Shown here piece by piece: positions 1,446-18,372 of a DNA stretch of 63,801 nucleotides. The notes under the pieces are model-generated. The model was not told the DNA's origin, ran no database searches, and was given only the letters and a program-made list of their open reading frames with translations. Numbering within the stretch: position 1 is the stretch's first letter; the number at the start of each line of letters is the position of its first letter. Source of the stretch: a virus (lineage: Duplodnaviria; Caudoviricetes); IMG/VR virus record IMGVR_UViG_3300012953_000028, positions 1 through 63,801 of that record. One strand, written 5' to 3'. Made by a program: the position numbers and the translations under genes.

Positions 1446-2078
1446 ATGGATTTTGTGTTTATTAATCCAAGTGAAATTGCAACAAGATTTTTTCAAGTGT
1501 TTGAAAGATCTCTTACGTTTGGTGTAAAAGTAACAGATGAATTTATTCCTCAATACGAGCCTTCTGAAGTTGGAGACCTTCCTTTGCTTGACTTTGGATT
1601 CCAAGGTGCCTTTGATACAATAGCCTGGGATAAGCCAGGAGTTGCATTACAAAAAATGCATAAGTTTAAAAATTTTAATTTAGAAGATTATCAAGATGAT
1701 GAAGTTCCTGACGGAGTTGTATTACTTGATATGATTTGTCATCAAAGAGTATATGCAGTAACCAGTCAGTGGTTAAGACAAGATGGTAAATGGACTTTAC
1801 AACGTAATGCTGACGTTAATGATGATAAGCACGGATATAAAGCTCTTGCTATTGAAGAAATAGAGAAAAGGAGATTATATGGCACGGTGCAAACATACAT
1901 TTATCCTGATAACTCTGTTAAATTTAAACTTCATCCAGTTGACATGGCTTACATCATTAGTAAAGAAATTGTTAACAGACATTGGATTACAATCTATCCA
2001 TCTTTAGTAGCCAACAGAAATAGGCCCGAAGTTAGTAGTTATTTGTTTAAGGCTTGGATAGATAAAACTTCTATTTAG
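1446..2078 (+). CDS. Hypothetical protein
   Basis: 210-aa ORF with GGAG SD, 3 nt after the previous stop. Confidence 0.75.
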   Translation: MDFVFINPSEIATRFFQVFERSLTFGVKVTDEFIPQYEPSEVGDLPLLDFGFQGAFDTIAWDKPGVALQKMHKFKNFNLEDYQDDEVPDGVVLLDMICHQRVYAVTSQWLRQDGKWTLQRNADVNDDKHGYKALAIEEIEKRRLYGTVQTYIYPDNSVKFKLHPVDMAYIISKEIVNRHWITIYPSLVANRNRPEVSSYLFKAWIDKTSI

Positions 2079-2532
2079 AGTACATTCTATAACTACCAAA
2101 TAATAAATCCCAAATAGGAATAAACAATCCATAGTTTTTAAATGGTTCTGCATGATGTACTAGATGCCATTTTCCAGATGTAATTGCTGGATACCAACTA
2201 AATTTAGGATTGTGCTCAATGACCTCTTGTAAGAAAGCCGCCCAAAAATAGTAAGCAATGCTAATCCACCATTCACCTGTTATGTAACTAAAAATTAAAG
2301 TAGGTATAACTTCTGTAATCCAAAGGTCTAAAGTTGATAACCAGGTGTCATTAAACAGAAAACAATTATTCCAATGCCATTGTGTTCCGCCTGTAGTGTT
2401 AATGTATTTGTGATGGTCGTTATGGGCTTTATAAGATACAGGAAACCATCTACGTCCGTGAACATGAATAGTACGATGTATAATATAAAGTAATAGAGTC
2501 CATAATAAAAATGTAAGTATCATATGCATCAT
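2071..2532 (-). CDS. Fatty acid hydroxylase / sterol desaturase family membrane protein
   Basis: His boxes HRTIH, HNDHH, EH and HLVHH plus NYGLF..WD.LFG tail; hydrophobic segments; start moved to the ATG at 2532, downstream of a late-promoter motif. Confidence 0.85.
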   Translation of the reverse strand: MMHMILTFLLWTLLLYIIHRTIHVHGRRWFPVSYKAHNDHHKYINTTGGTQWHWNNCFLFNDTWLSTLDLWITEVIPTLIFSYITGEWWISIAYYFWAAFLQEVIEHNPKFSWYPAITSGKWHLVHHAEPFKNYGLFIPIWDLLFGSYRMYSK

Positions 2533-2534
2533 TG

Positions 2535-2586
2535 TACTACTATTTATTTGGTTAGACGTTTTTAGCCTTTCCAATAAATAGTAGTA
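2535..2586. promoter_or_regulatory. Divergent pair of late promoters forming a 14-bp inverted repeat
   Basis: TACTACTATTTATT (2535-2548) is the exact reverse complement of AATAAATAGTAGTA (2573-2586); each copy contains ATAAATA pointing at a gene. Confidence 0.7.
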
Positions 2587-3167
2587 TGGACAGGCTTTGG
2601 CAAAAAATTGACGATATTCCTAATATACAAGACTTAGTGTTTAGAATTAATAAGTCTTTGTATTTGCATAAAATTAATAAAACAGTAACAATTCAATCAC
2701 CCGAGTATAAATTTTTTGGAATGATAAAAAAGTTTATAGAAGAAAATCCCCATCCAGTATGGAATGGTTTAACTTTAAAGTCTGGACTAATTTTTGTCTT
2801 ACCTAAGGATAAAGCACAAGGTCTGCATATTGATGGTTTTAGAGCAGACAGATCAGGAGCATCAGATTATGCATTAAATATTCCAATTCGTAACTGTGGT
2901 ATTGGTAGTATGGATTGGCATGGAGGAGCACCATATCATATGGAAGTTCAAAAAATAGCAGATGCAACTGTAATGGGAAGAAAAACAAACTCTAACAAAT
3001 ACTTAAAACTTATATGGGAAGGAGAACATAGAGTAATTGATTCTGTAACAATTACAACTCCTCATTTAGTTAGAATTGACGTTCCGCATCAAGCAATAAA
3101 CTTATGCAAAGAAAATCCTAGAATAATGCTTTCTATTAGGTTTAAACCAGACTTAAAATGGATATAA
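2586..3167 (+). CDS. 2OG/Fe(II)-dependent oxygenase-like (cupin/DSBH) protein
   Basis: HID motif, ALNIPI strand, distal PH and R-x-x-L-S-I-R-F ending. Confidence 0.7.
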   Translation: MDRLWQKIDDIPNIQDLVFRINKSLYLHKINKTVTIQSPEYKFFGMIKKFIEENPHPVWNGLTLKSGLIFVLPKDKAQGLHIDGFRADRSGASDYALNIPIRNCGIGSMDWHGGAPYHMEVQKIADATVMGRKTNSNKYLKLIWEGEHRVIDSVTITTPHLVRIDVPHQAINLCKENPRIMLSIRFKPDLKWI

Positions 3168-3193
3168 AATAATATAGTATAGAAGGAGTTAAC

Positions 3194-4177
3194 ATGACTA
3201 TATCTTTAAAACTATCAGATGCGCCAGAAGAAATACCTGTCGCTAACTCTTTACATAGAAGAGCCCCTTTTATGAAAAGTACATTACAACCCCGAGAACC
3301 TTACCCTAGTTTAATTAAACTAGAACTAACAGAAACTGATACCGATTTATTAATTAAAGATACCTTACAGGCTTTAGACAATGTAGGTATGTTTGGATAT
3401 AGACTAAGAGGTAAAAGACCAGATGGGTCATTAAAAAGTGATACTGGTTATTTAGGAATGGGACTAACATATAATCCATTACACATTGACGGAATTGAAA
3501 CAGATCCACATGAGCAAGTACAAGGAAATCACTTTAAACATATTAAGCAGGAATTTGGTGCAAAGTCAGGAGATGGTCGTGTTAGTCCTTATAGTAGAAT
3601 GGATCAATCAGAGGCTAGAAGAATTGCAGTAAGGAAAGATACACATTATGATACCTATAGTATGGCTTTCCGTACAGAAGGTAGCAGGTATGGATACTTA
3701 GGAACTTTTCTAGATGGATTAAAAAGAAGCATGGTTAGGTCAAGTCTTCGTATAATTTCTTCTCATGGTTCTACACAAGCAATGGGTCAAAAAGGAGCAG
3801 AACGTGCAACACAAAGGCCAGGAGTTGCCTGGCACACAGACGAGATGATGTTTAATAATCTAAGAATTAATATTGCTATTAAAACATCTAAAGAGTTTGT
3901 ACTAGAACAACAAACAAACGTAGGAAAACTAATTCATTTAGAAGCTCCGTATGCATATAGTTGGGACACAGGAATTCCACACCGTGCTTATTGCTCGGAG
4001 AAACCTGCAGAACCTTTTTTCCGTACACATATTATGTTAGGTGTTGCTCCTTGGTTTGACTTTAACGAAGAAACAGAGACCTGGACACAAAACGAATTCT
4101 ACGAGAAAAAGCATCCATGGGATATGTTATGTGACGGAGATATTATTCCTGGTGCAAAATTGGTTAGACAAGATTAA
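3194..4177 (+). CDS. 2OG/Fe(II) oxygenase, Asp/Asn beta-hydroxylase-like
   Basis: WHTD...LRINIAI...WDTGIPHRA...RTHIMLG pattern; AAGGAG SD. Confidence 0.7.
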   Translation: MTISLKLSDAPEEIPVANSLHRRAPFMKSTLQPREPYPSLIKLELTETDTDLLIKDTLQALDNVGMFGYRLRGKRPDGSLKSDTGYLGMGLTYNPLHIDGIETDPHEQVQGNHFKHIKQEFGAKSGDGRVSPYSRMDQSEARRIAVRKDTHYDTYSMAFRTEGSRYGYLGTFLDGLKRSMVRSSLRIISSHGSTQAMGQKGAERATQRPGVAWHTDEMMFNNLRINIAIKTSKEFVLEQQTNVGKLIHLEAPYAYSWDTGIPHRAYCSEKPAEPFFRTHIMLGVAPWFDFNEETETWTQNEFYEKKHPWDMLCDGDIIPGAKLVRQD

Positions 4178-4215
4178 ATTATTATATTAAGTAAAGTAAC
4201 AACGGAGTAACATTT

Positions 4216-4845
4216 ATGGAACAACATTGGGTTGCTTTAGCCACTACCGCTGAAAATAGTATCCTGGCTTGGTCTCAAGAGTTAAATATATTAGAGCAAG
4301 CCTGCTCTGGAGAATTTCGTGCTATATGTAGAGTATACGGTGTAACAGGAGAAGAACTTGCACTTCTCAGATCTAACAAACTTGACTATAAATTACAATA
4401 CATAGATGCTAGAACTACTAAGTTCATTGGCGAAGAAGATAGAGATAACGATACTATAGTTCTTAGCAAAAAACTTCTTGCTAGAGTAATGCTAACAACA
4501 GAGCTACATCAAAGATTAGAACACGGATATAAACGTTTCCAAAATCTTGTTCCTTGGCAACAAGAAGCATACTTAATAAAAGAAGAACAAGCCAGACGTG
4601 TACTTAAAGGAGATACATCTGATATAGGTTTTATAGAAGATGAAGCACAATTTAGAAATCTCCCTCTAGACTCTGTCGCTAAATTAATTGTAGCAAAAGC
4701 AGACAATTTGAAATTTCAAATAAGGAAGCTAGAAAGAATTCGTGTTAAAACCCAAATGGCAATTAATGCTATTTCAACTAAAGAGGATGTTCAAGAACTT
4801 CGACAACGGTTAGGCGAAGAAACTTTCTTGAGTATGTTAATGTAA
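4216..4845 (+). CDS. Helical protein resembling phage tail-fibre-associated/assembly proteins
   Basis: QEAYLIKEEQARRVL...EAQFRNL...AKLIVAKA pattern recalled from tail-fibre-adjacent phage proteins; TAATG overlap with the next gene. Confidence 0.5.
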   Translation: MEQHWVALATTAENSILAWSQELNILEQACSGEFRAICRVYGVTGEELALLRSNKLDYKLQYIDARTTKFIGEEDRDNDTIVLSKKLLARVMLTTELHQRLEHGYKRFQNLVPWQQEAYLIKEEQARRVLKGDTSDIGFIEDEAQFRNLPLDSVAKLIVAKADNLKFQIRKLERIRVKTQMAINAISTKEDVQELRQRLGEETFLSMLM

Positions 4846-5903
4846 TGAAAAATCTATTATACTATATTCCATATAGAATTTTAAATTCTGAAAAAAGTAC
4901 TAACCTAAGTAACGTACAAAAAGACTTTTTAGGTATGTTTAATACTTGGATTAGTTTAAGCGACAGAACAGGTACACTTGACTTAGGAATACCTGTTTTT
5001 AATAATAGTCCAATTCCAGAGAAACAATCACCAGAGAGTTTTGAAAGTTGTTCTGTTAGTAGGATGACTGAAATTATTAAGTCTTTTCAAAACAACAAAG
5101 ACAAAGAAAAGTTAGTTCTTATGTATTCTGGAGGTATTGATAGTACGTTAATTGCTTGTTTATTAATATCTAGTCCTTACTGGGACGATATCAAAGAACA
5201 TGTATTGTTGGCTTTTAATGAAGATAGTCAACTTGAAAATCCTAAATTTTTTCATAATGTAATATTAGATAAATTTGGACATTGTTTAATTTCTAGTAAT
5301 AACTTTTATGATATTGTTACTAATCCTAAATATAGTGTAATTACAGGCGAGTGTGCAGATAACTTATTTGGAAGTTTAACAGTTAAAAGCTATATGGATG
5401 CAACAGGAAAGTTTGATTGTTTACATGAAAGTTGGGAAACAGGTTGCTTAGATTGGTTACTAGATAAATCTAACAAAGAGACTAGAGACGAACGTGAGCA
5501 AATGTTATATGATTTGGTAAATGCTAGTCCTATTGATATTGCTACTAACCATGAATTCTTATGGTGGATTAACTTCAGTATGAAATGGCAGGCAGTTAAG
5601 TATCGTATGGGTATGCATTCTCCTAATAAAGAACAAGCAGAATATATGTGTGAGAATGTTATTAACTTTTTTGATACTATAGATTACCAAGTATGGGCAT
5701 TATACACAGAAGAACAGAAGTTAGGAGATACTTGGTCTAGTTATAAACTTCCTGCAAAGAAATTAATCAACGAAGTATTTGAAGACGAGAAGTATCTTGT
5801 TCATAAAACAAAATGGCCTAGTCTACCAACTATTACACGTTACAATAATGCTTGGGGTTATCTATATGAAGAAGACGGAAAACTAAGTGTTTCCAAATAT
5901 TGA
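4845..5903 (+). CDS. Asparagine-synthetase-like ATP pyrophosphatase / amide ligase (no GATase domain)
   Basis: PP-loop YSGGIDS, TGECADNLFG, late K-x-x-x-K and K motifs. Confidence 0.8.
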   Translation: MKNLLYYIPYRILNSEKSTNLSNVQKDFLGMFNTWISLSDRTGTLDLGIPVFNNSPIPEKQSPESFESCSVSRMTEIIKSFQNNKDKEKLVLMYSGGIDSTLIACLLISSPYWDDIKEHVLLAFNEDSQLENPKFFHNVILDKFGHCLISSNNFYDIVTNPKYSVITGECADNLFGSLTVKSYMDATGKFDCLHESWETGCLDWLLDKSNKETRDEREQMLYDLVNASPIDIATNHEFLWWINFSMKWQAVKYRMGMHSPNKEQAEYMCENVINFFDTIDYQVWALYTEEQKLGDTWSSYKLPAKKLINEVFEDEKYLVHKTKWPSLPTITRYNNAWGYLYEEDGKLSVSKY

Positions 5904-6689
5904 TTTTTTGCTTTTTAATTTATAGTTAATTTTTTTCTTAAACTCTTCTTTAAAAACTCCATCAACTCTAATACTAAAAGCAGAGTATGGACTTGCATCA
6001 CTTCCATGATAGTTAGCAGTATCAAACCATGCTACTTGGCTTTTAATATAGTGCTTTGTGTTAGTATCTTTATCTTCTACAAAAAATGCTTTCCGGTCCA
6101 TAAACATATTAATCCAAATAAATTCGTCTGGATCAGTAACTCTATTTAAAGGATTATGATCTCTATGTGTTATACATTGTTGATCTTGATCGTTGTAAAA
6201 TATTAGAGTTCTGCCAATTTCACTAAAAATATTTTGTTCGTCTACCCAATCCATAAAAAACTTAAAGTTTTCATAAAAGGGTCCTTCTTTGTTATTTTTT
6301 GCTAAATGTTTATCTGCATAGTCTTTTGTAATAGGTTGTTTAATAAACATATTATAACCAATACCTTGTGCTTCAGTTATTAGCTTTATAAATGTCAATG
6401 CATAACTAGGTTTGCCTGTAGCAAGGTATTCATGTACTTGTTCGTGTCCTGGTGCAGTATTATCTTCTGCAATTCTTTTTAAGGCTGTAGATAACTCCTC
6501 TCCTGGGTTTTCTTCTGGCCAGTTTAGTCCGGCGCCTGCTACAGCCGGAAGTACTTGACAGCCTACTTTTAATCCTAACCAAGAGTCAGCAAATGCTTTG
6601 CATAGTTTTATTTTTAAATTATTAAGCCCTTCAATATCAATATGTTTGTCTAAGTTAACATAAGGCTTTCCATTAATTTTGTATATCAT
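5883..6689 (-). CDS. 2OG/Fe(II) oxygenase-like protein
   Basis: HRD...FIWI...WFD..NYHG...FSIRVDG. Confidence 0.65.
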   Translation of the reverse strand: MIYKINGKPYVNLDKHIDIEGLNNLKIKLCKAFADSWLGLKVGCQVLPAVAGAGLNWPEENPGEELSTALKRIAEDNTAPGHEQVHEYLATGKPSYALTFIKLITEAQGIGYNMFIKQPITKDYADKHLAKNNKEGPFYENFKFFMDWVDEQNIFSEIGRTLIFYNDQDQQCITHRDHNPLNRVTDPDEFIWINMFMDRKAFFVEDKDTNTKHYIKSQVAWFDTANYHGSDASPYSAFSIRVDGVFKEEFKKKINYKLKSKKSIFGNT

Positions 6690-7545
6690 ACAGTTCGAAC
6701 TTCTCTACAATCTCTTTCATTTCTCTGTTACTAATTCCACCAAACCTATTACCTAATTCGTCTAAGTTCTTCATATCTACTTCTCTGAACATAAGATACT
6801 TAACTAAGTCAAGTTCTTGCCTGCTTAATTTTACTCCCTGCTCTTGATAGTCTTCAAATGCTTCACTTGCAATAGGAAACTTTTCTTTTACCATAGAATA
6901 CATTACTCTGGCATATTCTTGTATTTCCCATTGTGCATGACTATCCATTCTAAGTCTTGCATAATGAAAAAAGTTTTTAAGATCAATTTTCCAATAACAT
7001 TCTGTATATCCTCCTACTGGAAGAACTTGCCTCGCAGTCTCTCTAGCCAAGTCAAGGTTGTTGGAATGCTCTGCGTAGATTGTATATGCACTAGACCACG
7101 ACTCGTTAAGATCGTTGCAGATTCTTTGTTTTGTGTTATCGTCGAGTTCTCCTTCTCTACCTTGCTTATTGGTTGAACTTTGAGGTTTGATGTTTTCTGA
7201 CTCGGGTATATAGACTTCGTCTGTAAGAACCGAGTACCTGGCCGAATATTCATTTAGTGATGCCGTCCTATGTCTAACTAATTGTCTCATTACAAAGATA
7301 GGCAATTTGATATGAAACTTTACCTCGCACATTTCGAATGGCGTAGTATGTTCGTGACGCATTAGATAACGTATTAAGTTTTTATCAGTACTTGCTTTCT
7401 TAGTACCTTCGCCATAACTTACTCTAGCGGCTTGTACTATTGAGTTGTCTGTGCCCATACAGTCTACTAAACCAACAAATCCTTTATCTAATACTTCAAC
7501 GTAATTCGGGTCATTCTTAAAATCTATCTCCGAACGTAATGTCAT
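6673..7545 (-). CDS. thyX: FAD-dependent thymidylate synthase
   Basis: IVQAARVSY, H.TPFE, signature RHRTASLNEYSARY, E.AR..LP, HAQWEI. Confidence 0.97.
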   Translation of the reverse strand: MTLRSEIDFKNDPNYVEVLDKGFVGLVDCMGTDNSIVQAARVSYGEGTKKASTDKNLIRYLMRHEHTTPFEMCEVKFHIKLPIFVMRQLVRHRTASLNEYSARYSVLTDEVYIPESENIKPQSSTNKQGREGELDDNTKQRICNDLNESWSSAYTIYAEHSNNLDLARETARQVLPVGGYTECYWKIDLKNFFHYARLRMDSHAQWEIQEYARVMYSMVKEKFPIASEAFEDYQEQGVKLSRQELDLVKYLMFREVDMKNLDELGNRFGGISNREMKEIVEKFELYDIQN

Positions 7546-8453
7546 GTTGTTTCCTTTACTTCTAACTGTCTTTCTATTATAGCATTTTTTCTGTTACCCC
7601 ACAACCTTTTTATTTCCGACCAAGGCGCAAATGGTAACATTATAATTAAACATGGATCAAATTCGTGCCATCTTCCGCTTACACTTGCTCCAAAGTCAAA
7701 ACTACTTGCTTCTCTGTGATGATTGTTATGCCAGCCACTTCCCCAATGGAAGTATCCTATAGGCCAACAGTTTGTACTACAATCTTTATTATTAAAATTC
7801 TGATATCCAGCGGCTGGAACATGCCCAAATGTATTAACCATGCCATCCATATGTAAACTAGACAATGAGCCTACAATCCAAAACCAAAATGTAAACTGCC
7901 AACCAAATAACAATAAGCTGGCAAGTAATGTTCCGTAGATAATCTTATTGTAGTGATTATGTAACCATACAATTTTCTTATCTCTTAACAAATCAACAGC
8001 ATAGCGAAAACTTACACTATCTTGTTTAATTTCAAATTGCCAACCCATGTAACTATGCCACCATCCGTTTTCAACTGGAGTATGTATATCCTTACCTGGC
8101 TGATCACTAACTTTATGATGGTGTCCTCTATGTAAAGATGCCCACCATAACGGACTGCCTTCACCTACCATAACTGCTAACCAATACAAGAATGGTTTCA
8201 TCCACTCACGTGGCTTCCAAGACTTATGGCTTAACAGCCTGTGTAGTGTTAGGTTATTCCCAATACCATCTAATGTAATCCATCCGCATACTGCGGCACC
8301 TAAGTACCACCATTGCCAATCTGTTACTGCAAGATACGGAATCAATATTAAAGCAAGTAAATGGTATGGTAACCAAATTGCTAAAATAAATGGTATCTGA
8401 TTTGTCTTTTTATATAGGTCTATTTGCCCTTGTATCCAAGCTCTAACTGTCAT
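7542..8453 (-). CDS. Delta-9-type acyl-lipid/acyl-CoA desaturase
   Basis: Three His boxes HRLLSH, HRGHH and WHNNHH; D.HTP; transmembrane segments; DP near the C-terminus. Confidence 0.92.
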   Translation of the reverse strand: MTVRAWIQGQIDLYKKTNQIPFILAIWLPYHLLALILIPYLAVTDWQWWYLGAAVCGWITLDGIGNNLTLHRLLSHKSWKPREWMKPFLYWLAVMVGEGSPLWWASLHRGHHHKVSDQPGKDIHTPVENGWWHSYMGWQFEIKQDSVSFRYAVDLLRDKKIVWLHNHYNKIIYGTLLASLLLFGWQFTFWFWIVGSLSSLHMDGMVNTFGHVPAAGYQNFNNKDCSTNCWPIGYFHWGSGWHNNHHREASSFDFGASVSGRWHEFDPCLIIMLPFAPWSEIKRLWGNRKNAIIERQLEVKETT

Positions 8454-9096
8454 TAATTCTCCTATTTCTTCTAATTGCTTTTCCGCCTTTTGATGGGGCT
8501 TCTGTGTCTGATCTTCGTAGTATATATCTTCTAAAGTTCATATTATGAGGATGTAGTGTTCTTCCTAGCAATTCGTTAACTAAGCTATAGTGTGTTAATG
8601 TTTTTGCTGGAATTGTCATTTCAACAAATGTATAATATCTTTCTCTTAAAAATAACATAATACGGCTATACGGATCTTCTCTGTCTTCTGGGTAAGTTAA
8701 AAAGAATTCATTTAATCCTATTGCTTCATGTATATTACATAGTTCTGTTACAATTTCTCTAAACATTGGAACAAATTTTATTCCCATAGAAGGAGATAAA
8801 ATCCAAGCAAAACACCAACTAGGAGAATGAGGTAAGCGTCTTACTCCTACTGCTGAAATTAGTTCATCATTTTTATATACTCCCCAACAAGCTCGCTGAC
8901 TAAAGTTTTTAAACTTCTCAGGATCTAACATAAACATTCTAAAAAACTTTTCTCTTTCTTTAACCTGATCAATATCAAATCCTACTCTAAAGTCTGGATA
9001 TTTACTAGGATCTACTCCGTCATAGATGCTATCAGCAAGTTCTAAAACTTGTTGTAAGTCATTGTGATTAAACTGTTTTAATTGATATGCTGACAT
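8443..9096 (-). CDS. Putative GNAT-fold acyltransferase
   Basis: WGVYKNDELISAVG beta-hairpin and overall GNAT-like pattern; weak. Confidence 0.45.
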   Translation of the reverse strand: MSAYQLKQFNHNDLQQVLELADSIYDGVDPSKYPDFRVGFDIDQVKEREKFFRMFMLDPEKFKNFSQRACWGVYKNDELISAVGVRRLPHSPSWCFAWILSPSMGIKFVPMFREIVTELCNIHEAIGLNEFFLTYPEDREDPYSRIMLFLRERYYTFVEMTIPAKTLTHYSLVNELLGRTLHPHNMNFRRYILRRSDTEAPSKGGKAIRRNRRINDS

Positions 9097-10867: not shown

Positions 10868-10882
10868 ACTAGTATGTACCTG

Positions 10883-11410
10883 TTAATCTATGTCGTTGCT
10901 ATCCAAGCTCATTAGTAAGTGCCAACGTTTCTCGTTACCACAGTTTATTGCGGTATGTAATTCTCTTGTATCTACTTTAAATACTCCCCCATTAGCAGGT
11001 ATCTCTACTAATTCTGGAGGATCAACAAATAAAAATCTAGCCTGTTTATTTGTATATGTTGCTATATGTAATCTTTGGTGAGGGTCTCTGTGCATACTAT
11101 AACAAGTGCGAGGTTCCATAATCATTATTCTTGTACGATATACTTTCCACGGAAATTCATCAAAAAACTTTTCCCAATATGTTCCAATTAAATCTGGACG
11201 TAGCTTATCCCATTGATGTTCGTTATCCCCTAAGTATGTTCCTGTTCCTTCAGCAAAATCTCCAACTCCACCTGACTGTAATGCTGTTTGTGATCTAAAA
11301 TCACCAAGCTCTTTATCCCATGCTAACTTCTTGCATTCCTCATGTAAACGTTCTACATCATCAATAACATAAGGCCTGTTATTATGTCGCATACGATATT
11401 TCTTACTCAT
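10883..11410 (-). CDS. Asp/Asn beta-hydroxylase-like 2OG/Fe(II) oxygenase
   Basis: R.RIM.M.P..CYSMHRD...RLHI...DT...HTA.N.G...R.HL. Confidence 0.82.
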   Translation of the reverse strand: MSKKYRMRHNNRPYVIDDVERLHEECKKLAWDKELGDFRSQTALQSGGVGDFAEGTGTYLGDNEHQWDKLRPDLIGTYWEKFFDEFPWKVYRTRIMIMEPRTCYSMHRDPHQRLHIATYTNKQARFLFVDPPELVEIPANGGVFKVDTRELHTAINCGNEKRWHLLMSLDSNDID

Positions 11411-12688
11411 TTATACCTCCCCTATAACCATAAATCTATTACACTTCTCTAAATTTAATTCTCCTTGATAATATATCTTGGATACTCCGCACTCCTCAAC
11501 AAACTCGTCTAAATGAGAAAAACAATTAACATGGTCAGGAACATCAAACATATTGTTTCCTTGTAATACAACTCTAGTTCCTTTAGGAAGGGTCTCAACC
11601 CAACCTCCGTGGTCATGAAAGTGTTCTGTTATTGTATCAATTATAATAAAATCTTTCATTTCAGTAAAGTCCATAGATCTAATATCTTTGTTTGAAACTT
11701 GATAACGTTCTGTTGATACTCCTGCCATTGACATCTCATTACCGTCAACATCTGTTATATCTGGTGCCTGTACATTTAATATACAGGACGGATCATTAAC
11801 AGTTTTATCAATATCTACATTAAGAACTTTTCCAAATTCTTGTTTACGACAACCTGCTAAGAAAGGTAGTATTCCAAGCCAACCTCCAACAATAATTGTA
11901 GTAGTTTCTTCTGTAATCCAATTCATTTTTTCTAGTTCATCTAGCAACCAAACTTTACTTTTAATTTGATTTCTGCTTAGTGCATCATGCCAGTTTAATT
12001 TTGGACTATGTGTTATTGCTTTAGCCATACGTTTAAGTTCTGGTTGCAACTCAGGAAAATAATTTATACTTGCATTATCCGCAAGTACTTCAATGTTATC
12101 GTCAACTAAGTTTTCTAATAGAGTTGTTCTGCCTACTAGTAATCTTGCAAAGTAACATACCTCATAGATATTTCCTTCTTTTGCTTCTGCTAGTTTGTTC
12201 GCTCCCCATGCTATATTTTCTAATGCATCAGTTCCGTTTTCTTTTATCCAACCTGCTGTAGCCCATACTGGCTGAGCAATATCTTCTACTACTTGGCATC
12301 CTTTCCAAATTGTATTAATTACTTCATTAGGTGCAGATGCAAACTTAATATTAGTATCTTCTCTATGATACATTCCAAGTGCTAGTGCTAGTCTTAACTG
12401 GTTCCATCTTGTTTTTTCTTTAGCAGGCTCAACACATGCTACTAAATCCTGAAAGTTTAAAAAGTTTTCAATTCCAACATTGTAAAATAAATGTTCTAGA
12501 TCGTCATCTGATCCTGTTTCTAAATTTCTTCTGAGCCAATGTAAGCTACTACGAAACCCAATAAACTCTTCCATAAAATATAAAAAGGCTATTCTATTTT
12601 TTCTAATAGTATCTTCTTTACTTCCTGGTACTAGTCTAGCATTTTTCTTTTGTTTTTCTTCTTGTAGCCTTGCCATTATTTCCACCAT
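11411..12688 (-). CDS. Class I SAM-dependent methyltransferase (C-terminal) with helical N-terminal domain
   Basis: Q..SK.WL, IIVGGWLG motif I, VDID motif II, T.TEH, VLQGNN. Confidence 0.75.
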   Translation of the reverse strand: MVEIMARLQEEKQKKNARLVPGSKEDTIRKNRIAFLYFMEEFIGFRSSLHWLRRNLETGSDDDLEHLFYNVGIENFLNFQDLVACVEPAKEKTRWNQLRLALALGMYHREDTNIKFASAPNEVINTIWKGCQVVEDIAQPVWATAGWIKENGTDALENIAWGANKLAEAKEGNIYEVCYFARLLVGRTTLLENLVDDNIEVLADNASINYFPELQPELKRMAKAITHSPKLNWHDALSRNQIKSKVWLLDELEKMNWITEETTTIIVGGWLGILPFLAGCRKQEFGKVLNVDIDKTVNDPSCILNVQAPDITDVDGNEMSMAGVSTERYQVSNKDIRSMDFTEMKDFIIIDTITEHFHDHGGWVETLPKGTRVVLQGNNMFDVPDHVNCFSHLDEFVEECGVSKIYYQGELNLEKCNRFMVIGEV

Positions 12689-13671
12689 CCAAATAGTTTT
12701 AAGTTAGTTCTCCAATGTACGTCATCATACGTTAAAGGTTTTTCAGGATGTAGTTGTAGCTGTTTAAAAAGAAAACTAGAACTTTCATCTAGTACTGGTA
12801 TGTTAAATCCATAAACTTCGTTTACTGCATCTTGTAGTTCTTTCATACCTCTTTCTGTTATTGTTTCAAAGCTCTTAAAGTATTCGTTGAACCATTCGTA
12901 ATCTCTAATTAATGTATAGTCAAAATTGTTAAAGTATAACTGTCTGATAGCAGTACGAGCACCTATAATACTCCAGATGCCGTTTTTAACATCAGATCCA
13001 ACTGTTAGCCATGTTAGTAGTCTTTGATAGTTTGCGGCATGCATTATTTCTTTAATATTATCTTTATCAATTACTTTTCCAGCTTCGGTTGAAAGTTTAA
13101 CTCCTTCTCTAAAACCTACACGGAAAGCCTGATACGGAGATGCATTAGTATAAACAGTTGAATAGCAACCAGGAAGTTCTTTATATTGAGATTCGTCCCA
13201 ACAAAAATCAACTTCATCTCTTTCAGTATTTGATGCTTCGTGACTCTTCATTGACATCAAATGCTCTGTGTTCCAAAGTTTTAGGCCACCATTTCCGTAC
13301 ATTAAGCCGTTTGTATATTGCCGTCCACCCCAAGTATAAGACATAAATCCTATACCTTTAGGAAGGCGTAGTTCAAAGAAAGAAGAATCAACTATACTAT
13401 CTGCATCAACAGTAATTACATAACCAGCATTAGGAAAAGCCTTTGCGGCGGCTTTATGACAAGCATCAAATCCTTTAACTCCGTGTACACGTTGTATTTC
13501 TTGATGAGGTGTTGTTAATTGTAATGTCTTCCAATTTTCATCAGCATTTGGTTCGTCAAAACTTAAAAACACAATAGGAATATCTCTAACAGTCCTAGCA
13601 CTATGTTTTACATTTCCAGCAAGTATTTTTGCTTTGTCGTCTTTTGATAATTTAAACATTGACATTATCAA
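12676..13671 (-). CDS. GT-A fold glycosyltransferase, paralog 3
   Basis: FLSFDEPNADENW, HKAAA, VDAD (DxD), NGLMYGNGGLKLW, AFRVGFREGVKL. Confidence 0.75.
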   Translation of the reverse strand: MIMSMFKLSKDDKAKILAGNVKHSARTVRDIPIVFLSFDEPNADENWKTLQLTTPHQEIQRVHGVKGFDACHKAAAKAFPNAGYVITVDADSIVDSSFFELRLPKGIGFMSYTWGGRQYTNGLMYGNGGLKLWNTEHLMSMKSHEASNTERDEVDFCWDESQYKELPGCYSTVYTNASPYQAFRVGFREGVKLSTEAGKVIDKDNIKEIMHAANYQRLLTWLTVGSDVKNGIWSIIGARTAIRQLYFNNFDYTLIRDYEWFNEYFKSFETITERGMKELQDAVNEVYGFNIPVLDESSSFLFKQLQLHPEKPLTYDDVHWRTNLKLFGWWK

Positions 13672-14518
13672 ATTCCTTTTCTAACCATTCCCAATTATTA
13701 ATTAGATTCATCTTCTCACTATTAGCATATTTCAAACCATGTTTGATTCCAGCTTTTGCTCCTTTAATAACCCACTCTGCATTTAGTCCTTCTGATACAG
13801 TTGACCATACATGATATCTTACAGATGCTTCAAAAATCTCATCAAAGTAGTTATGTGTTAGTAAACTTTCTCTATATTTCTCAATTATAATACTTCTTTT
13901 TCCTCCTCTATATGATGACTTAGATTTTCTATCCCAATCTTGTTTTTGTATATGCTCTTCTAACTTAATAAATTCTTGTTCTCTTTGTTCTTCTCTTCTT
14001 TTAATTGCTCCAAAAACTGAGCCTAATGATGCTAACTTTGCACACTCTCTAAATGCTCCTATAAACGCACTATCAGGAGTTGCGTTAAATCTTGTTTCGC
14101 AACTTACTTTAGTTTTAGCAATAGTAGATGCTCCTATCGTTGTAGATAAATCAATATGCCAAGGACGGCCTTCTAAGAATGGCTTCTTAGGAAACAACTT
14201 AACTCCGCCATAACCATACTCTAGTCCGTTAACTGGGTTAACACTATTCCATACAATTACACATTCGTTTTCTGGATGATCCCAATACATTTCATCTGGA
14301 TCTGGAACAAAGTCAAAATCAAAATCATCAACAATCCAAGCATCAGCATCAACTACATAAAAATTATCTGTTGTTGATTGCTCTGCACAAGTTTTGTGGA
14401 CTTCATAAATTCCTTTAACATCTCTTACTTCTTTAATATTTGGAACAAACTGTGTTAGTCTTTGATAGTTTTCTTCTGCATTCCATTCACCTTGAGAAAT
14501 AAAAAATACGTCTAACAT
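13652..14518 (-). CDS. GT-A fold glycosyltransferase, paralog 2
   Basis: FFISQGE.NAEENY, VVDAD, NGLEYGYGGVKLF, AFRECAKL. Confidence 0.75.
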   Translation of the reverse strand: MLDVFFISQGEWNAEENYQRLTQFVPNIKEVRDVKGIYEVHKTCAEQSTTDNFYVVDADAWIVDDFDFDFVPDPDEMYWDHPENECVIVWNSVNPVNGLEYGYGGVKLFPKKPFLEGRPWHIDLSTTIGASTIAKTKVSCETRFNATPDSAFIGAFRECAKLASLGSVFGAIKRREEQREQEFIKLEEHIQKQDWDRKSKSSYRGGKRSIIIEKYRESLLTHNYFDEIFEASVRYHVWSTVSEGLNAEWVIKGAKAGIKHGLKYANSEKMNLINNWEWLEKEFDNVNV

Positions 14519-14522
14519 TCTA

Positions 14523-15497
14523 TTACCCTACTATTAACTGATCGACATCAGCTTCTCTAACTAATGGTGCTAGTCTAATAGGATTAAAGTAACTGGCTTT
14601 GTAGAACTTACTTGCTTCTTCATTTAATGTAGATATCTCTAAACCCATATCTTGTTTTAATACTCTTCCTAATTTTTCTATTTCATTGTATAACTTTTTT
14701 GTATTCCAAGAGTAGTCACTTGTTATACAATGCTCATCTGTTCCGTAAAACTTTGGAGCAACTTCCTCATGCCAATATTTATTGTGCCATTCAAAGTCAC
14801 GTACAAGTGTAAAATCAAACTCGTTCCTTTTTATATTTGTCATATAGCAACCTAAACGAGCACCGTATATTGCCCACATACCATTGTCTATATCAGAGCC
14901 TACACTCATCCATATTAATAGTCTTCTATGATTTTTATAATTATTTTTTTCTGCTACTTGACGCCAATCCATAGGCTGGCCGTTGTGTAATGCTAACTTA
15001 ACTCCTTCTCTAAATCCTGCTCTGTATGCTTGGTAAGGAGTCTTGTTATTATATACATCACTATAAATGTTGTTTAATTGATGGTAATGTATATCCCAAC
15101 AGAAGTCAACAGCGCCTGCTCCGCTATCTACTTCTTCGTGTGTTCTCATTTGTTCTACTACTTTTACTGGCCAGAGTTTAATTCCGCCATTACCATATAC
15201 TAGCCCATTAATCACATTTTTACCAGACCAGCTTAATACATCAGCCTCGTGGAATTTCTCTATATCTAATTCAAGTTCAAAGAAGTCTTCTCTTACTTTA
15301 TTATCTGCATCAATACCAATAAAACGTTCTGTTTCTGATAGTTTGGCGGCGGCTTTATGGCAAGCATCTGATCCAAATACTCCATGACTTCTTTTTGCCC
15401 AAGGACATATTGACTGTAGGTGAGCCCAATTTTCATCAGCATTTGGTTCATCGTAACTAATAAAAACTACATCATATTCACTTATAGGTACGGTCAT
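14523..15497 (-). CDS. GT-A fold glycosyltransferase, paralog 1
   Basis: FISYDEPNADENW, IDAD, NGLVYGNGGIKLW, AYRAGFREGVKL. Confidence 0.75.
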   Translation of the reverse strand: MTVPISEYDVVFISYDEPNADENWAHLQSICPWAKRSHGVFGSDACHKAAAKLSETERFIGIDADNKVREDFFELELDIEKFHEADVLSWSGKNVINGLVYGNGGIKLWPVKVVEQMRTHEEVDSGAGAVDFCWDIHYHQLNNIYSDVYNNKTPYQAYRAGFREGVKLALHNGQPMDWRQVAEKNNYKNHRRLLIWMSVGSDIDNGMWAIYGARLGCYMTNIKRNEFDFTLVRDFEWHNKYWHEEVAPKFYGTDEHCITSDYSWNTKKLYNEIEKLGRVLKQDMGLEISTLNEEASKFYKASYFNPIRLAPLVREADVDQLIVG

Positions 15498-16462
15498 GCT
15501 TCAACTCCAACATCTAGATTGTTTGCTTTATATAACAGGTTTACTGGAGTATTGTCTGGCCAATTAGCAATCTCAAAAGGAGTATTTTGCCTTAACATTA
15601 ATGCTGGAAGTTCTACCCAAGCAACAAAATAATCAGGGTCATCACCTTTAATAAGAGCACCTTTTATGTTTCCTGGTATATCGTCTATAGGACACCCAGG
15701 GGTATAATGGCTTTGTGCCCATAAAGTATTGTCTTTTGTATATAATGTAATATGCGTTCCTGGGCCTGAATGAGAGATTATTGTCTGCATCTCAGATGTT
15801 CCATTAAAAGTGTAATACTTTTCTGCTCTTACAAATGTTACTCCTTTAGATATTTTTGAAAAGTTTAAACGTATATTTTTGTCTTTATGAATTATATCAT
15901 CAATTACTAATGGATCAATTAAATCCCACAAAGAGAACTCTGAGTATCCTTTTTCTAATAAAGGCTGTAGTTTGATGTCAATGTTTCCTAATAGTATATG
16001 AGGATCTGTACTATCTGTTATATAAATTTTAAGAGGCTCTAGTTGTTTGTTTTCTATTGCACGGGTTGTCCAAACTCTATTTGGCTCTAATCTTATAATG
16101 CCCTTGTTAGGAAATAATACAAATTTTAATTCAGGGTTTTCACTTTTTTCGTATAATGATGTACTATGCCATTCATTATAATTTTCATTAACTTTATATT
16201 CAGATATAGTACGCCTGTCTACTAAATCTAATACTCCAATTTTTTCGTTTATTGTAACAATATAGTTACTTTGGCTGTCTGTTCCAGACAATATATTTTG
16301 TATTTTAGAATACGATACACTTAAACTACTAGGATTATCAGTTTGCACTCCCGGAGATATTTTAGTAATATTACCTTTATCGTTGTATTCAACTGACCAA
16401 AATTCTTGTTTAGCTTTTTTTCTTTTTCTAATTGAAAATTTAATATCAGCCATTGTATACAT
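15494..16462 (-). CDS. Hypothetical protein
   Basis: 322-aa ORF with ATGA coupling to the downstream GT. Confidence 0.75.
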   Translation of the reverse strand: MYTMADIKFSIRKRKKAKQEFWSVEYNDKGNITKISPGVQTDNPSSLSVSYSKIQNILSGTDSQSNYIVTINEKIGVLDLVDRRTISEYKVNENYNEWHSTSLYEKSENPELKFVLFPNKGIIRLEPNRVWTTRAIENKQLEPLKIYITDSTDPHILLGNIDIKLQPLLEKGYSEFSLWDLIDPLVIDDIIHKDKNIRLNFSKISKGVTFVRAEKYYTFNGTSEMQTIISHSGPGTHITLYTKDNTLWAQSHYTPGCPIDDIPGNIKGALIKGDDPDYFVAWVELPALMLRQNTPFEIANWPDNTPVNLLYKANNLDVGVEA

Positions 16463-17156
16463 ACTCTAATGTTTTTTTAGAATTGTCTAACCATACAGGA
16501 AATAACTGTATATGGTTTTCTAGTTTAAAATTTCCGTTTGACGGATAATAAGAGATCCAGTCATGCCATGTGTTTGTTGCATACATTACTGGATCTGTTT
16601 CTAAATCTCTAATACTTAAATCAACTAAAGGAAAACTGTTTAAAGACTTCCAAGAAGGAAACAGAGAAGCCATTGCACTTAACCAATGTTGGAGTCCTGA
16701 TTTTTCTGGCAAGTAATCTACCCATAGTTCTTCTTCTTTAAAATTTGCTACTAGCATAAAAGATTCAACGGCGCTCATTGAGTCTCCTATTAGCATAATA
16801 TAAGGAACACTTGTTTGATTGTTTTCCTCTTGCACTTTTCTTTTTAAAAGTTTCTTCTTAGGAATTTCTAGTAGTCTGTGATCTACAATTTTTCCTGGAA
16901 CAATATTTTCTTTCTTTTCTTTAGCAAGTTCCAATACTTTAAACGATAATGGTCGAGGAGCAAGTCCTGCTTCGCATAATATATCTCCATCTTCTAAAGG
17001 AACTCTAGACAACTCTAGCAACTGTCCAATTGGGCCATCTTCTAATAGCTCTACATATACTGTTTCAATATCACTATTAATTGTAAGTATATCTTCTTTA
17101 GTTACATTATAAAGTTCTATGTCTTTTCCAAATACATAACACCTCATGTCATACAC
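16446..17156 (-). CDS. Hypothetical protein (possibly a degenerate GT partner)
   Basis: 236-aa ORF overlapping both neighbours; no clear catalytic motif. Confidence 0.65.
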   Translation of the reverse strand: MYDMRCYVFGKDIELYNVTKEDILTINSDIETVYVELLEDGPIGQLLELSRVPLEDGDILCEAGLAPRPLSFKVLELAKEKKENIVPGKIVDHRLLEIPKKKLLKRKVQEENNQTSVPYIMLIGDSMSAVESFMLVANFKEEELWVDYLPEKSGLQHWLSAMASLFPSWKSLNSFPLVDLSIRDLETDPVMYATNTWHDWISYYPSNGNFKLENHIQLFPVWLDNSKKTLEYVYNG

Positions 17157-18022
17157 CTCATAATACTTCTATAGTTTCGTAATATGCTTAACTTGTTCAT
17201 CATATGTATATCTTCTCCAGTAATTCTTACTGCAATATTTTTATATTCCTCGGGCAAGTTACTAAGCATAATCCAATCGTTTGCCCCTTTAACTTCTATA
17301 ATATCATCACGTTGATCTTGATAACGCATGTGTAAAGGTATACGTCCTACAAACCCTCCGTCTTGCATTCCGTCACACAAATGAGATGCAATAGAAGCGG
17401 CGTAATCAGTACGATATAGACTTCCAGGAAACTTATATAAAAATCTATAATACTCCCAGTGATCCTTTACATGAGCCCATACATTGAAAAAATGTTCTGC
17501 TTCTTCTGATTTTCTCCAATAAACTACTGTTGACCACCACATTCTAATACCTGCATAATGTAACCATCTTTCAGTAGTATAAGGTTCTTCGCAACGTAAA
17601 TTCATTGCGTCTCTGTGCATTGCAACATTACTTTGCCCGCCAAAAAGCATTTCTAGGTTATTACTACCAACTAGATAATCTGTATCAATTAATATAGTCT
17701 CGTCAAAAGGAGTTAGGTTATAAATGTCGTGTTTATTTGTATTTGTAAATTGGGCATTAAAACTTTTATATGCACCGTCCTGATGTATTCTAATATTAGT
17801 TTCATATTCAGGATCAGTCATAATAACTTCGTCCCAAGTTTTTTCTATTAGCTTTCTTTGAGATTGCTTTTTACTAAATTCTTTAATACTACGTTCATTA
17901 GTTACTAAAACTACAGGTATGTCTGGCATATACTTTTTTAAAGCAGAACTTGCAACTGTGGCTAGTTTCATGTAGTCTATTTGCTCGTTATTATAAGCAA
18001 ACATCATAAAGCCTTTTGTCAT
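17144..18022 (-). CDS. GT8-like (GT-A) glycosyltransferase
   Basis: KGF..FA.N, K...Y..TPFDETILIDTD, YRTDYA, HMMNK. Confidence 0.75.
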   Translation of the reverse strand: MTKGFMMFAYNNEQIDYMKLATVASSALKKYMPDIPVVLVTNERSIKEFSKKQSQRKLIEKTWDEVIMTDPEYETNIRIHQDGAYKSFNAQFTNTNKHDIYNLTPFDETILIDTDYLVGSNNLEMLFGGQSNVAMHRDAMNLRCEEPYTTERWLHYAGIRMWWSTVVYWRKSEEAEHFFNVWAHVKDHWEYYRFLYKFPGSLYRTDYAASIASHLCDGMQDGGFVGRIPLHMRYQDQRDDIIEVKGANDWIMLSNLPEEYKNIAVRITGEDIHMMNKLSILRNYRSIMRCMT

Positions 18023-18372
18023 TTTGCTCCTACAACTGTTTTTGTAGCCCTAGCTTTTTTTAATTTTTGTTGTTCGTTATATTTTAGTTCTAATGCTTTA
18101 TTATAGGTTTCTAACAGATTTTTTAAAAAATCTTTACTTTTTTCAATAGAACTAACATTACCAATAGAATCTTCAATGTATAGTACTTGCTTTGGATTTG
18201 CACTTACTTGAGAAGATACATAGCCAATTAGACTTTGAGTGACTTTAAAAATACTATTGTTATAGTTTAACAGTAACATTGTTTCAACACGAGCGTCAAT
18301 ATTTTTTCTTTGTGTTTGTAATGTTAGTCTATAGTTGGCAAACGCCAAAGCGTCAGTTAACCTATTATCCAT
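18019..18372 (-). CDS. Small helical protein, DUF4376/tail-fibre-chaperone-like
   Basis: 117 aa; pattern recalled from DUF4376-type proteins; first gene of the GT operon, with ATGA coupling. Confidence 0.45.
   Translation of the reverse strand: MDNRLTDALAFANYRLTLQTQRKNIDARVETMLLLNYNNSIFKVTQSLIGYVSSQVSANPKQVLYIEDSIGNVSSIEKSKDFLKNLLETYNKALELKYNEQQKLKKARATKTVVGAK

Follow-up and report, generated by a model that had tools for sequence, protein, structure and literature searches.

The closest described counterpart of the locus presented here is the host recognition cluster (HRC) of pelagimyophages and cyanomyophages, an island that lies in the structural module of these aquatic T4-like myophages and carries tail fibres, glycosyltransferases (GT8 being the commonest family), sugar genes and radical S-adenosylmethionine (SAM) cassettes; the accessible text of that study counts an Asp/Asn beta-hydroxylase among the core genes of HRC phages and treats the function of the cluster as putative (PMC7029224, Zaragoza-Solas et al. 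2020). The "moraphages", aquatic jumbo phages that reach 307 kb and share a T4-type core, have four putative glycosyltransferase orthogroups in the core genome, and the target, as far as the accessible text goes, was left open among DNA, host serotype and virion (PMC12619734, Perez-Hernandez et al. 2025). In actinobacteriophages, structural proteins are glycosylated by glycosyltransferases that the phage itself encodes (Freeman et al. 2023, as cited in the accessible text of PMC12619734 and PMC12801897). Here we describe a block of about 16 kb (positions 2071–18372) in the virus record IMGVR_UViG_3300012953_000028, the whole of which (63,801 nucleotides) was analyzed and is called the window below. 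The block begins directly behind tail fibre genes with a conserved core of predicted glycosyltransferases and a SAM-dependent transferase and continues into a variable set of tailoring and auxiliary enzymes. We tentatively read it, at somewhat less than an even chance, as a system for late glycosylation of a virion protein.

Like the HRC, the locus is an island of fibres and glycosyltransferases within the structural module; fibre-linked islands of glycosyltransferases and tailoring enzymes are already published, and in this respect the window itself adds little new. Unlike the hypervariable HRC, its core is syntenic in 45 of 45 loci, and just the accessory part varies. The lineage also differs, as it is of the jumbo PA5oct/RsoM2USA type with the island placed after the gp7-fibre genes, and the enzymes match no Pfam glycosyltransferase model (the HRC being compared by its description only). 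The accessible description of moraphages (PMC12619734) does not include the operon, the fibre linkage or the accessory enzymes described here for the window. The lack of HSP70 in four relatives of the window is uninformative on moraphage membership, as only some moraphages have this gene. The actinobacteriophages, in turn, appear in the accessible texts as mycobacterial siphoviruses with one or two glycosyltransferases and with capsid or tail-tube C-termini as acceptors, whereas the window has at least four glycosyltransferases, accompanied by a methyltransferase and by tailoring enzymes, for a predicted glycan.

The window is a fragment of an uncultured marine jumbo myovirus with a T4-type core. 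It is the entire IMG/VR record of 63.8 kb (CheckV completeness 19%), has a GC content of ∼32–40%, and encodes a T4-type portal, prohead protease, gp23-type capsid, gp25, gp6, gp53 and hub. Its capsid protein is 63–66% identical to the capsids of the jumbo phages PA5oct, Vibrio 2.275.O, Sinorhizobium Phosso and Erwinia pEa_SNUABM, and marine metagenomes from 13 studies contain near-identical DNA. Relatives were collected with protein Q of the block, by a scan of IMG/VR (186 relatives; the counts below use 80 kept loci with 71–97% identity to Q) and by a profile scan of prokaryotes with one genome per species (98 loci found, 80 kept). Megablast of the 16-kb region against 50,697 phage records gave no match. 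The standard libraries (Pfam, PHROGs, NCBIfam) name just three proteins of the block, A (FA_hydroxylase), G (ThyX) and H (FA_desaturase), with sub-threshold matches for E (NAD synthase, in the PP-loop region) and M (Asp_Arg_Hydrox). In an all-against-all hhalign comparison of the block families, relatedness was limited to O, P and Q and, weakly, to E and J.

In the map of open reading frames (ORFs), sixteen minus-strand ORFs (18372–5883), labelled U-T-S-R-Q-P-O-N-M-L-K-J-I-H-G-F in this order, form one chain. This agrees with the first-pass annotation, made from the sequence alone, which had described overlapping or abutting genes co-oriented behind the baseplate genes. Among the 15 junctions, 12 overlap by 4–20 nt, one abuts (N/M) and two are gapped by 4 and 15 nt; some overlaps may be shorter, because four starts were listed as TTG or GTG by the ORF tool. 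The last fibre gene, tf1 (18432–19433), ends 59 nt from the chain start, and the chain is co-oriented with tf2, tf3, the gene for a 2981-aa gp7-like protein, gp6, gp25 and the hub gene. The remaining genes of the region are labelled A–E: B, C, D and E (2586–5903) are plus-strand genes running convergently towards F, and A (2071–2574) is a minus-strand gene. The region consists of two joined parts, a core (U–N, 18372–11411) and a separable accessory set (M–A, 11410–2071).

The core keeps its gene order and its fibre neighbours across distant relatives. Collinearity with the window holds for all 80 related IMG/VR loci; each of the 45 that span U–N has T, S, R, Q and P, and 43 of them have O. One of the fibre genes tf1 and tf2 lies upstream of U in 33 of the 34 loci with at least 1.5 kb of flank. 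Eleven distant phage-like contigs, binned in metagenome-assembled genomes, carry fibres, U, T, a second T-like gene, Q (38–54% identity) and sometimes P and N. A hidden Markov model (HMM) of U matches 12 ORFs located between fibre genes and T, in these 11 contigs and in the Ralstonia phage RsoM2USA, and the HMM of T matches a second ORF after T in the distant contigs, at the position of S. Among cultured phages, RsoM2USA alone has a Q homologue. Behind its gp7-like and fibre genes, counterparts of U, T, Q, P and N follow one another as they do in the window; its block also holds a radical SAM gene and a short-chain dehydrogenase/reductase (SDR) gene of the GDP-mannose-dehydratase type (nucleoside-diphosphate-sugar 4,6-dehydratase type). 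The conservation of the neighbourhood, which had been named as a check on the original proposal, is therefore found in the 80 collinear loci and, as the fibre-U-T-Q order, in the 11 distant contigs and RsoM2USA.

The best characterized core proteins are Q and its paralogues. A model of Q built from a 26-sequence alignment (predicted local distance difference test score, pLDDT, 85.3) has a GT-A domain at residues 1–156. Its Foldseek neighbours (E 1.6e-4 to 2e-3) are hyaluronan synthase, TarP, TarS, RmlT, WrtF, SunS and A64R of Paramecium bursaria chlorella virus 1 (PBCV-1), with probabilities of 0.97–0.99 to TarP, TarS and hyaluronan synthase. Structural alignment with VIA-align gave Z 11.0 to B4GALNT1 (root-mean-square deviation, rmsd, 3.0; 141 aligned) and 31 chains with Z of at least 8, other neighbours being A197 of Sulfolobus turreted icosahedral virus (STIV; Z 9.8), SpsA (9.2) and PBCV-1 A64R (8.3); nucleotidyltransferases of the same fold also score Z 8–9 against the model. 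The DxD motif of Q (D63 and D65, in the form D-A-D) is invariant in 26 sequences of three paralogue groups. By hhalign, O and P are paralogues of Q with probabilities of 100 and 99.5; O is 46% identical to Q, and P 31–33% by blastp. No Pfam family, including GT2 (PF00535) and its relatives, was matched by O, P or Q at E≤0.01, and the Q profile had no match among PDB sequences. The modelled fold, the motif and the paralogy confirm O, P and Q as three paralogous enzymes with the predicted activity of GT-A glycosyltransferases.

For T, the fourth GT-A enzyme of the first-pass annotation, the evidence is a GT8-like lead. Residues D113 and D115 (DxD) are invariant in 16 sequences, the N-terminal strand is GT8-like, and an ESM lead points to Glyco_transf_8/Mannosyl_trans3 (0.95, 162 shared features). 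Hhalign against three bacterial GT8 proteins was weak (probability 21.6, E 0.001, 45 columns) with the DxD in register. None of 38 family representatives and none of four close members match glycosyltransferase Pfam models, PF01501 included, and neither the T nor the N profile found anything usable among PDB sequences. T is thus a probable GT-A (GT8-like) glycosyltransferase with a putative fold. Its family is large, with 1375 representatives at 50% identity (E≤1e-3), and in some homologues (P0180, P0195 and P0220) one to several CBM5/12-like repeats (W.PNLPY..GQHVWY..LYRC) are inserted past residue 65.

The methyltransferase that had been proposed for the block is upheld in N. Its model (pLDDT 88.7) has a class I SAM-transferase fold at residues 226–425, to which all 50 chains listed by VIA-align fit at Z 14.9–12.9, led by RebM (Z 14.9, rmsd 2.9, 171 aligned) and by NodS and NTM1 (14.5). 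Residues G268, G269, W270, G272, D292 and D294 are invariant, and nicotianamine synthase is among the Foldseek matches. The model confirms N as a predicted class I SAM-dependent transferase, in which methyl and other alkyl transfer are indistinguishable. The other core proteins gave no match: U in Pfam, PHROG and NCBIfam; R in Pfam, PDB and the ESM Atlas, where no match was usable and its ESM model had a pLDDT of 0.31; and S in Pfam and PDB-sequence profiles, with an hhalign probability of 0.1 against T. No family could be assigned to R, S, U, K or D in the library scans.

The expression signals would fit late transcription of these units. Late promoters of phage T4 read TATAAATA. This canonical form occurs once in the window, at its end, against 10.5 copies expected (ten-fold depletion), and it was rejected as the informative form in favour of the 7-mer ATAAATA. 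The latter is five-fold depleted, with 7 copies against 35.7 ± 5.4 expected, which suggests selection against stray late-promoter-like sites. Five of the seven copies are intergenic and aimed at a downstream gene or the window end, and three head U, B and the likely start of A, with exact sites at 18399–18405(–), 2574–2580(+) and 2541–2547(–), respectively. The late-promoter-like motifs noted initially at these sites therefore stand: a T4-late-like motif, strongly avoided in the window, heads the units, and the window also has a gene for a gp55-like late sigma factor (phrog_12791, 3.9e-83). The shorter TAAATA lies within 60 nt upstream of starts 10 times against 1.3 expected, a figure inflated by AT-rich spacers. 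Before B, ATAAATA is 6 nt from the ATG. The TTG start listed for A is probably wrong, an internal ATG at ∼2532, preceded by ATAAATAGTAGTA, being likelier; ATAAATAGTAGTA mirrors the sequence before B, giving a divergent A/B pair with the same upstream box. Another proposed site, TACATA at ∼10873 (10868–10882, –), is present 6–8 nt before the ATG of L and is invariant at this place in ∼40 loci, nearly all relatives carrying it.

None of the core proteins has a predicted membrane segment, all the glycosyltransferases being soluble, and no flippase, polymerase or priming transferase is among the library matches of the window proteins. A soluble core in such a setting fits cytoplasmic glycosylation of a soluble acceptor. 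The core would then be a late-type, fibre-linked operon of four GT-A-type glycosyltransferases, a SAM-dependent transferase and three proteins of no family, with all enzymes soluble, and would build a short methylated glycan in the cytoplasm from host nucleotide-sugars. The acceptor would most likely be a phage structural protein made simultaneously, the nearest candidate being tf1 with its variable (GGY)n loop. We favour a virion protein because the fibre linkage holds over deep divergence, because viral precedents exist, and because the cellular relatives of Q lie in glycan- or peptide-type clusters. The neighbours of Q include glycosyltransferases of viral capsids (PBCV-1 A64R and STIV A197) and the peptide S-glycosyltransferase SunS. 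A64R (2p6w) and A197 (2c0n) are viral GT-A enzymes tied to capsid glycosylation; their identity to Q is just 8–11%, and the fold (Z 8.3 and 9.8, respectively) is common to many unrelated GT-A enzymes and nucleotidyltransferases, so that it is uninformative on the acceptor.

The same glycosyltransferases could instead remodel the host envelope, by a late change of the lipopolysaccharide (LPS) O-chain, the capsule or another surface glycan, with the His-box and LpxO-family-like enzymes altering lipids, and with blocked superinfection or less sticking to debris as the benefit. This is the published reading for the pelagimyophage and cyanomyophage HRC, where GT8 is the commonest family (PMC7029224, accessible text), and likewise for the "cell wall synthesis and modification" genes of large cyanomyophages. 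A and H of the block are integral-membrane lipid-type oxygenases, lipid desaturases are a known class of auxiliary genes in cyanophages, and the CBM5/12-like inserts in some T homologues suggest glycan binding. However, the library matches of the window include no priming phosphoglycosyl transferase, flippase, polymerase, ligase or GtrA/B-type membrane component, the glycosyltransferases are all soluble, and the model does not require a strict linkage of core and fibres over deep divergence. We consider envelope remodelling unlikely, if worth keeping in view.

Modification of DNA is a further candidate, in which the GT-A enzymes would sequentially glycosylate a modified base, N and the oxygenases would make or tailor this base, and ThyX would act on the nucleotide side. 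The first-pass annotation had set DNA modification aside as normally early; this does not exclude DNA, since phage enzymes glycosylating DNA share the GT-A fold and the TarP/A64R neighbours. According to the accessible text of Pyle et al. (10.1101/2023.12.21.572611), such phage enzymes glycosylate 5-hydroxymethylcytosine (5hmC), and the clusters contain sequential glycosyltransferases, epimerases and methyltransferases; the window resembles them in its sequential GT-A enzymes, its methyltransferase and the structural neighbours of Q. In addition, ThyX lies inside the chain, B, C and F are uncharacterized HxD..H proteins, and an NAD-dependent epimerase/dehydratase (SDR, E 1e-43 to 1e-47) is encoded ∼20–24 kb past the A end in three of four large relatives (G002, G003 and G004, the closest, G001, lacking it). 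The described clusters adjoin a C5-methyltransferase plus a TET-type dioxygenase or a ThyA-type hydroxymethylase, none of which was found in the window or the four relatives: searches in these relatives (38–86% complete) gave no ThyA-type hydroxymethylase (PF00303) or TGT/DpdA (PF01702), and no Tet_JBP match was found there or among the window proteins, which is uninformative since the family control was silent in every genome. The GT-A motif also differs, R...DDD...EDY/F in the DNA clusters against D-A-D in Q. The 50 best structural neighbours of N methylate small molecules, proteins or RNA and include no DNA methyltransferase, the module lies in a fibre operon and not among replication genes, and close cellular homologues of Q are in glycan-type clusters; the acidity of the core enzymes (isoelectric points 5.0–6.2) is a weak argument in the same direction. 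Overall, we regard DNA modification as improbable.

Several points weigh against glycosylation of a virion protein as well. From the folds, motifs, gene order, conservation and motif statistics we infer late timing, sugar donors, a virion protein as acceptor and a link between the core and the accessory genes. Late timing would follow from a motif known from T4 (TATAAATA); the GT-A fold and the TarP/A64R neighbours mark DNA-glycosylating phage enzymes too; and the authors of comparable islands favoured modification of the host O-chain (PMC7029224, accessible text). T is placed among the glycosyltransferases by a lead, and R, S, U, I, L and D have no family match. ThyX, A and H do not fit a protein-glycosylation pathway. 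The genes M–H, F, C and K come and go, which makes for a weak link to the core. Finally, the (GGY)n loop of tf1 was found in none of 10 distant module-bearing contigs and not in RsoM2USA ((GY)n occurs in L084).

This loop (residues ∼236–257; 18668–18728, –) contains 3–16 repeats in 35 of 38 relatives and varies between strains, with a 3-nt deletion and loose contig ends at 18661–18707 in metagenome contigs. A predicted complex of tf1 residues 190–333 with T scored 0.00, which is uninformative either way. Collagen-like G-X-Y runs, tried as targets of hydroxylation or glycosylation, were absent from the five large structural proteins checked. A detailed version of virion glycosylation, which we offer as speculative and quite improbable as a whole, is that the (GGY)n tyrosines of tf1 would be primed by the glycogenin-like (GT8-like) T, extended by the three Q-type enzymes and methylated by N, and in most lineages capped by an amide-linked, beta-hydroxylated amino-acid substituent from the PP-loop enzymes and the Cpz10-like hydroxylase (M), so that a marine jumbo phage of Gram-negative hosts would carry, at its receptor-binding end, a glycan coat specific to its lineage. 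If the fibres of the phage are indeed glycosylated by the core, the glycosylation of virions would extend beyond mycobacteriophages and giant viruses of eukaryotes and would be widespread in abundant marine and freshwater jumbo phages, affecting host range, adsorption, and recognition by grazers or immune systems. In any case, the block contains several large enzyme families without a Pfam model, the T family with its 1375 representatives at 50% identity among them.

The accessory part is modular. Among the loci spanning N–G, the genes M, L, J, I and H occur together and in a fixed order in 29 of 31 and are jointly absent from the remaining two (L082 and L079), while K is found in 2 of 31. F is present in 11 of the 26 loci spanning G–E; all 14 loci that reach A or B contain E and D, and none of them contains C or F. 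Hence the idea that the 16 kb constitute one pathway is not supported: besides the dispensability of M–H, F and C, ThyX (G), which the initial inventory had omitted, sits inside the chain, and A and H are membrane enzymes in contrast to the soluble glycosyltransferases. Past the glycosyltransferase core there might even be no system, just a plastic region that collects unrelated auxiliary genes, tightly packed as in compact phage genomes generally. The modular presence and absence agrees with this, ThyX, desaturase and hydroxylase are common stand-alone auxiliary genes of phages, hhalign finds B, C, F and M unrelated to each other and likewise I and L, and the sigma-70-like and terminator-like sites of the window are at chance level (81 vs. 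86.3 and 12 vs. 8.8, respectively). The travel of M, L, J, I and H as a unit, and the co-occurrence of C with Q and N in bacteria, are not expected from such a region, and we think it a rather unlikely account.

Four 2-oxoglutarate (2OG)/Fe oxygenases had been proposed in the block, of which M is substantiated. PF05118 matches 8 of 8 M members, seven of them at or above the 22.6-bit cut-off (the window copy has 17.2 bits), the M profile matches Cpz10 (E 1.1e-38 across 159 of 171 profile positions), and H107, D109, H152 and R162 are invariant in 23 sequences. By these matches M is firmly assigned as a predicted 2OG/Fe beta-hydroxylase. In the caprazamycin pathway of Streptomyces, Cpz10 places a hydroxyl group on the beta-carbon of the aminobutanoyl moiety carried by glycyluridine (PMC9814697, accessible text). 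Both M and Cpz10 (PDB 7V4F and related entries) are stand-alone cupins of ∼175–182 aa from the Asp/Asn beta-hydroxylase family with the aligned H-x-D, H and R kept. Unlike in the Cpz10 setting, no other caprazamycin enzyme is recognizable in the window, and therefore only the chemistry, beta-hydroxylation of an aminoacyl-type group, is transferable to M. For B, C and F, it is the invariant HxD..H..R motif that makes them candidate oxygenases: H81, D83, H168 and R179 in 8 sequences of B, H214, D216, H263 and R277 in 36 of C, and H175, D177, H228 and R241 in 12 of F, the R standing 10–14 residues beyond the distal H. Pfam, PDB profiles and hhalign gave no support for B, C and F as 2OG oxygenases; the hhalign probabilities to M are 1.5, 5.0 and 2.8, and no relation among the four proteins was found. 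The 14 homologues of F have no Pfam family, tblastn of F and B against phage genomes found no match, and tblastn of C gave partial matches to hypothetical proteins of Ralstonia phages and nothing else.

The two PP-loop ligases of the first-pass annotation retain the motif, SGGIDST in E and SGGLDSE in J, each invariant in its family alignment (SGGxDS in common). Members of E have weak Asn_synthase PP-loop matches (4 of 4, two above the cut-off), and the J profile reaches NAD synthetase 3fiu at E 0.021; these weak Asn_synthase/NAD_synthase matches are confined to the PP-loop motif. E and J align with an hhalign probability of 30.7, and the E profile found nothing usable among PDB sequences. The pair of GNAT-like proteins, presumably I and L, was not confirmed: Pfam matched 0 of 6 members of either, neither profile has a PDB match, the hhalign probability between them is 0.4, and none of 109 L homologues has a Pfam family of its own. 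G is ThyX (PF02511, 9.9e-54; TIGR02170, 1.2e-57). The two His-box lipid enzymes were recovered, A by PF04116 (E 2.5e-12, 47.8 bits, cut-off 31) and H by PF00487 (E 3.9e-14, 53.5 bits, cut-off 29.7). Each has three His boxes (HRLLSH, HRGHH and HNNHH in H), and both carry hydrophobic segments, two in H; the family matches and motifs confirm A and H as predicted membrane His-box diiron oxygenases. The match of H to NCBIfam DesA, 58 bits, is far under the 400-bit cut-off. Accessory tailoring of the core product is plausible, in that the two PP-loop enzymes might adenylate a carboxylate for amide formation, the Cpz10-like hydroxylase might modify an aminoacyl group at its beta-carbon, and up to three more oxygenases might take part. 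The genes for ThyX and for the two His-box lipid oxygenases of the membrane would be ordinary auxiliary ones.

The Q family extends to cells (Bdellovibrionales, Rhodobacterales and Photorhabdus). Cellular Q homologues, 35–47% identical, lie in glycosyltransferase clusters rather than in DNA-metabolism loci. In Rhodobacterales, Q is accompanied by GT1 and GT28-type genes and by caspase/Sel1/TPR proteins; in Photorhabdus, the order GT1-Q-GT2-GT2 is followed by an ATP-binding cassette (ABC)/HlyD exporter; and in one Bdellovibrionales genome the Q homologue is fused to a GT2 domain. In Bacteriovoracaceae, four chromosomal loci (L104, L129, L130 and L136) bring a C homologue of full length together with Q and the methyltransferase part of N. 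They also hold 3–5 radical SAM/SPASM genes, GT2s and an amine oxidase, and one has a QueC-like PP-loop protein, which the E and J HMMs run against the bacterial loci did not match. The Bacteriovoracaceae cluster is a cellular counterpart of part of the phage block, and the presence of C with Q and N in these four bacterial loci is the sole evidence tying an accessory gene to the core. By its cellular context, the Q family belongs with clusters of glycan or peptide type rather than with DNA metabolism.

Such clusters also raise the possibility that the block makes a soluble product directed against the host or competitors, a glycosylated, methylated and hydroxylated peptide or nucleoside-like molecule in the style of ribosomally synthesized and post-translationally modified peptides or other natural products. 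M is homologous over its full length to Cpz10, which tailors a nucleoside antibiotic by hydroxylation, Q resembles SunS, the bacterial Q/N/C clusters have their 3–5 radical SAM/SPASM genes and the Photorhabdus cluster its ABC/HlyD exporter, and a radical SAM gene lies within the RsoM2USA block. We consider this very unlikely, given that the window has no recognizable precursor peptide, exporter, nonribosomal peptide or polyketide synthase, or nucleoside-scaffold enzyme, that the fibre linkage would be left unexplained, and that M is one of the dispensable genes (present in 29 of 31 loci). The features of the block are listed in Table 1.

Table 1. Genes and elements of the block and its fibre flank, in the order of the minus strand.
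Feature	Positions	Strand	Description	Basis or remark
tf1, tf2, tf3	18432..21201	-	Fibre-type genes directly upstream of the chain	PHROG tail-fibre matches for tf2
tf1-U intergenic region	18380..18434	-	ATAAATA (18399-18405) and hairpin kept in relatives	
U	18019..18372	-	117 aa, first gene after the fibres	
T	17144..18022	-	Probable GT-A (GT8-like) glycosyltransferase	Invariant DxD, ESM lead
S	16446..17156	-	236 aa	Position of second T-like paralogue in distant phages
R	15494..16462	-	322 aa	
Q	14523..15497	-	Predicted GT-A fold glycosyltransferase, helical C-terminal domain	Structure model
P	13652..14518	-	Paralogue of Q	
O	12676..13671	-	Paralogue of Q	
N	11411..12688	-	Helical N-domain and predicted class I SAM-dependent transferase domain	Structure model
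M	10883..11410	-	Predicted 2OG/Fe(II) beta-hydroxylase, Cpz10 homologue	PF05118, Cpz10 profile match
L	10223..10867	-	214 aa, presumably called GNAT-like at first	
K	10012..10242	-	76-aa ORF, poorly conserved	2/31 loci
J	9078..10028	-	PP-loop ATP pyrophosphatase-type protein	SGGLDSE
I	8443..9096	-	217 aa, presumably called GNAT-like at first	
H	7542..8453	-	Predicted membrane His-box enzyme, fatty-acid-desaturase family	PF00487
G	6673..7545	-	ThyX flavin-dependent thymidylate synthase	PF02511, TIGR02170
F	5883..6689	-	Possible 2OG/Fe oxygenase	Motif only
E	4845..5903	+	PP-loop protein	SGGIDST
D	4216..4845	+	209 aa	In 14/14 loci
C	3194..4177	+	Possible 2OG/Fe oxygenase	Motif only
B	2586..3167	+	Possible 2OG/Fe oxygenase	Motif only
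A	2071..2574	-	Predicted membrane His-box enzyme, fatty-acid-hydroxylase family	PF04116

The tf1-U spacer also contains a conserved hairpin. In several relatives (L024, L072, L046 and others), ∼60 nt before U, a 9-bp stem with an 8-nt loop holding GTAAATAA is followed by CATAATA. Scored as a predefined structure (RNAalifold on the tf1-U spacer predicted none), the stem is 83.6% paired over 25 sequences, compared to 17–55% with the partner slid, and has 19 compensatory cells, a number reached by 0 of 500 shuffles. Possible roles of the hairpin are termination or attenuation, RNA stability and translational switching. In the subgroup of the window, it is an outer TCCT...AGGA stem instead that encloses the motif and the likely ribosome-binding site of U. 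The TACATA element before L stands where the Shine-Dalgarno sequence of this gene would be expected. Four runs labelled "METAGENOMIC RNA-Seq" (the RNA being guessed) yielded short contigs over tf1–tf3 and patches of O/P, Q and T, which carry no information on timing or level.

Among the cellular relatives, five loci of Rhodobacterales (L133, L100, L127, L140 and L094) share a conserved arrangement of a Q homologue with a GT1 gene and a 730–775-aa protein with a GT28 C-terminal domain. The same loci encode two caspase-domain proteins, one with Sel1/TPR repeats and the other with a peptidoglycan-binding domain. Elsewhere in the window, a cytidylyltransferase-like gene (PF01467, 1.7e-6; 38964–39614, –) is the first of the baseplate operon and is preceded, at a distance of 26 nt, by a GGTAAATAT motif; its product is possibly an enzyme for an activated sugar or polyol donor, or else a nicotinamide mononucleotide (NMN) adenylyltransferase.

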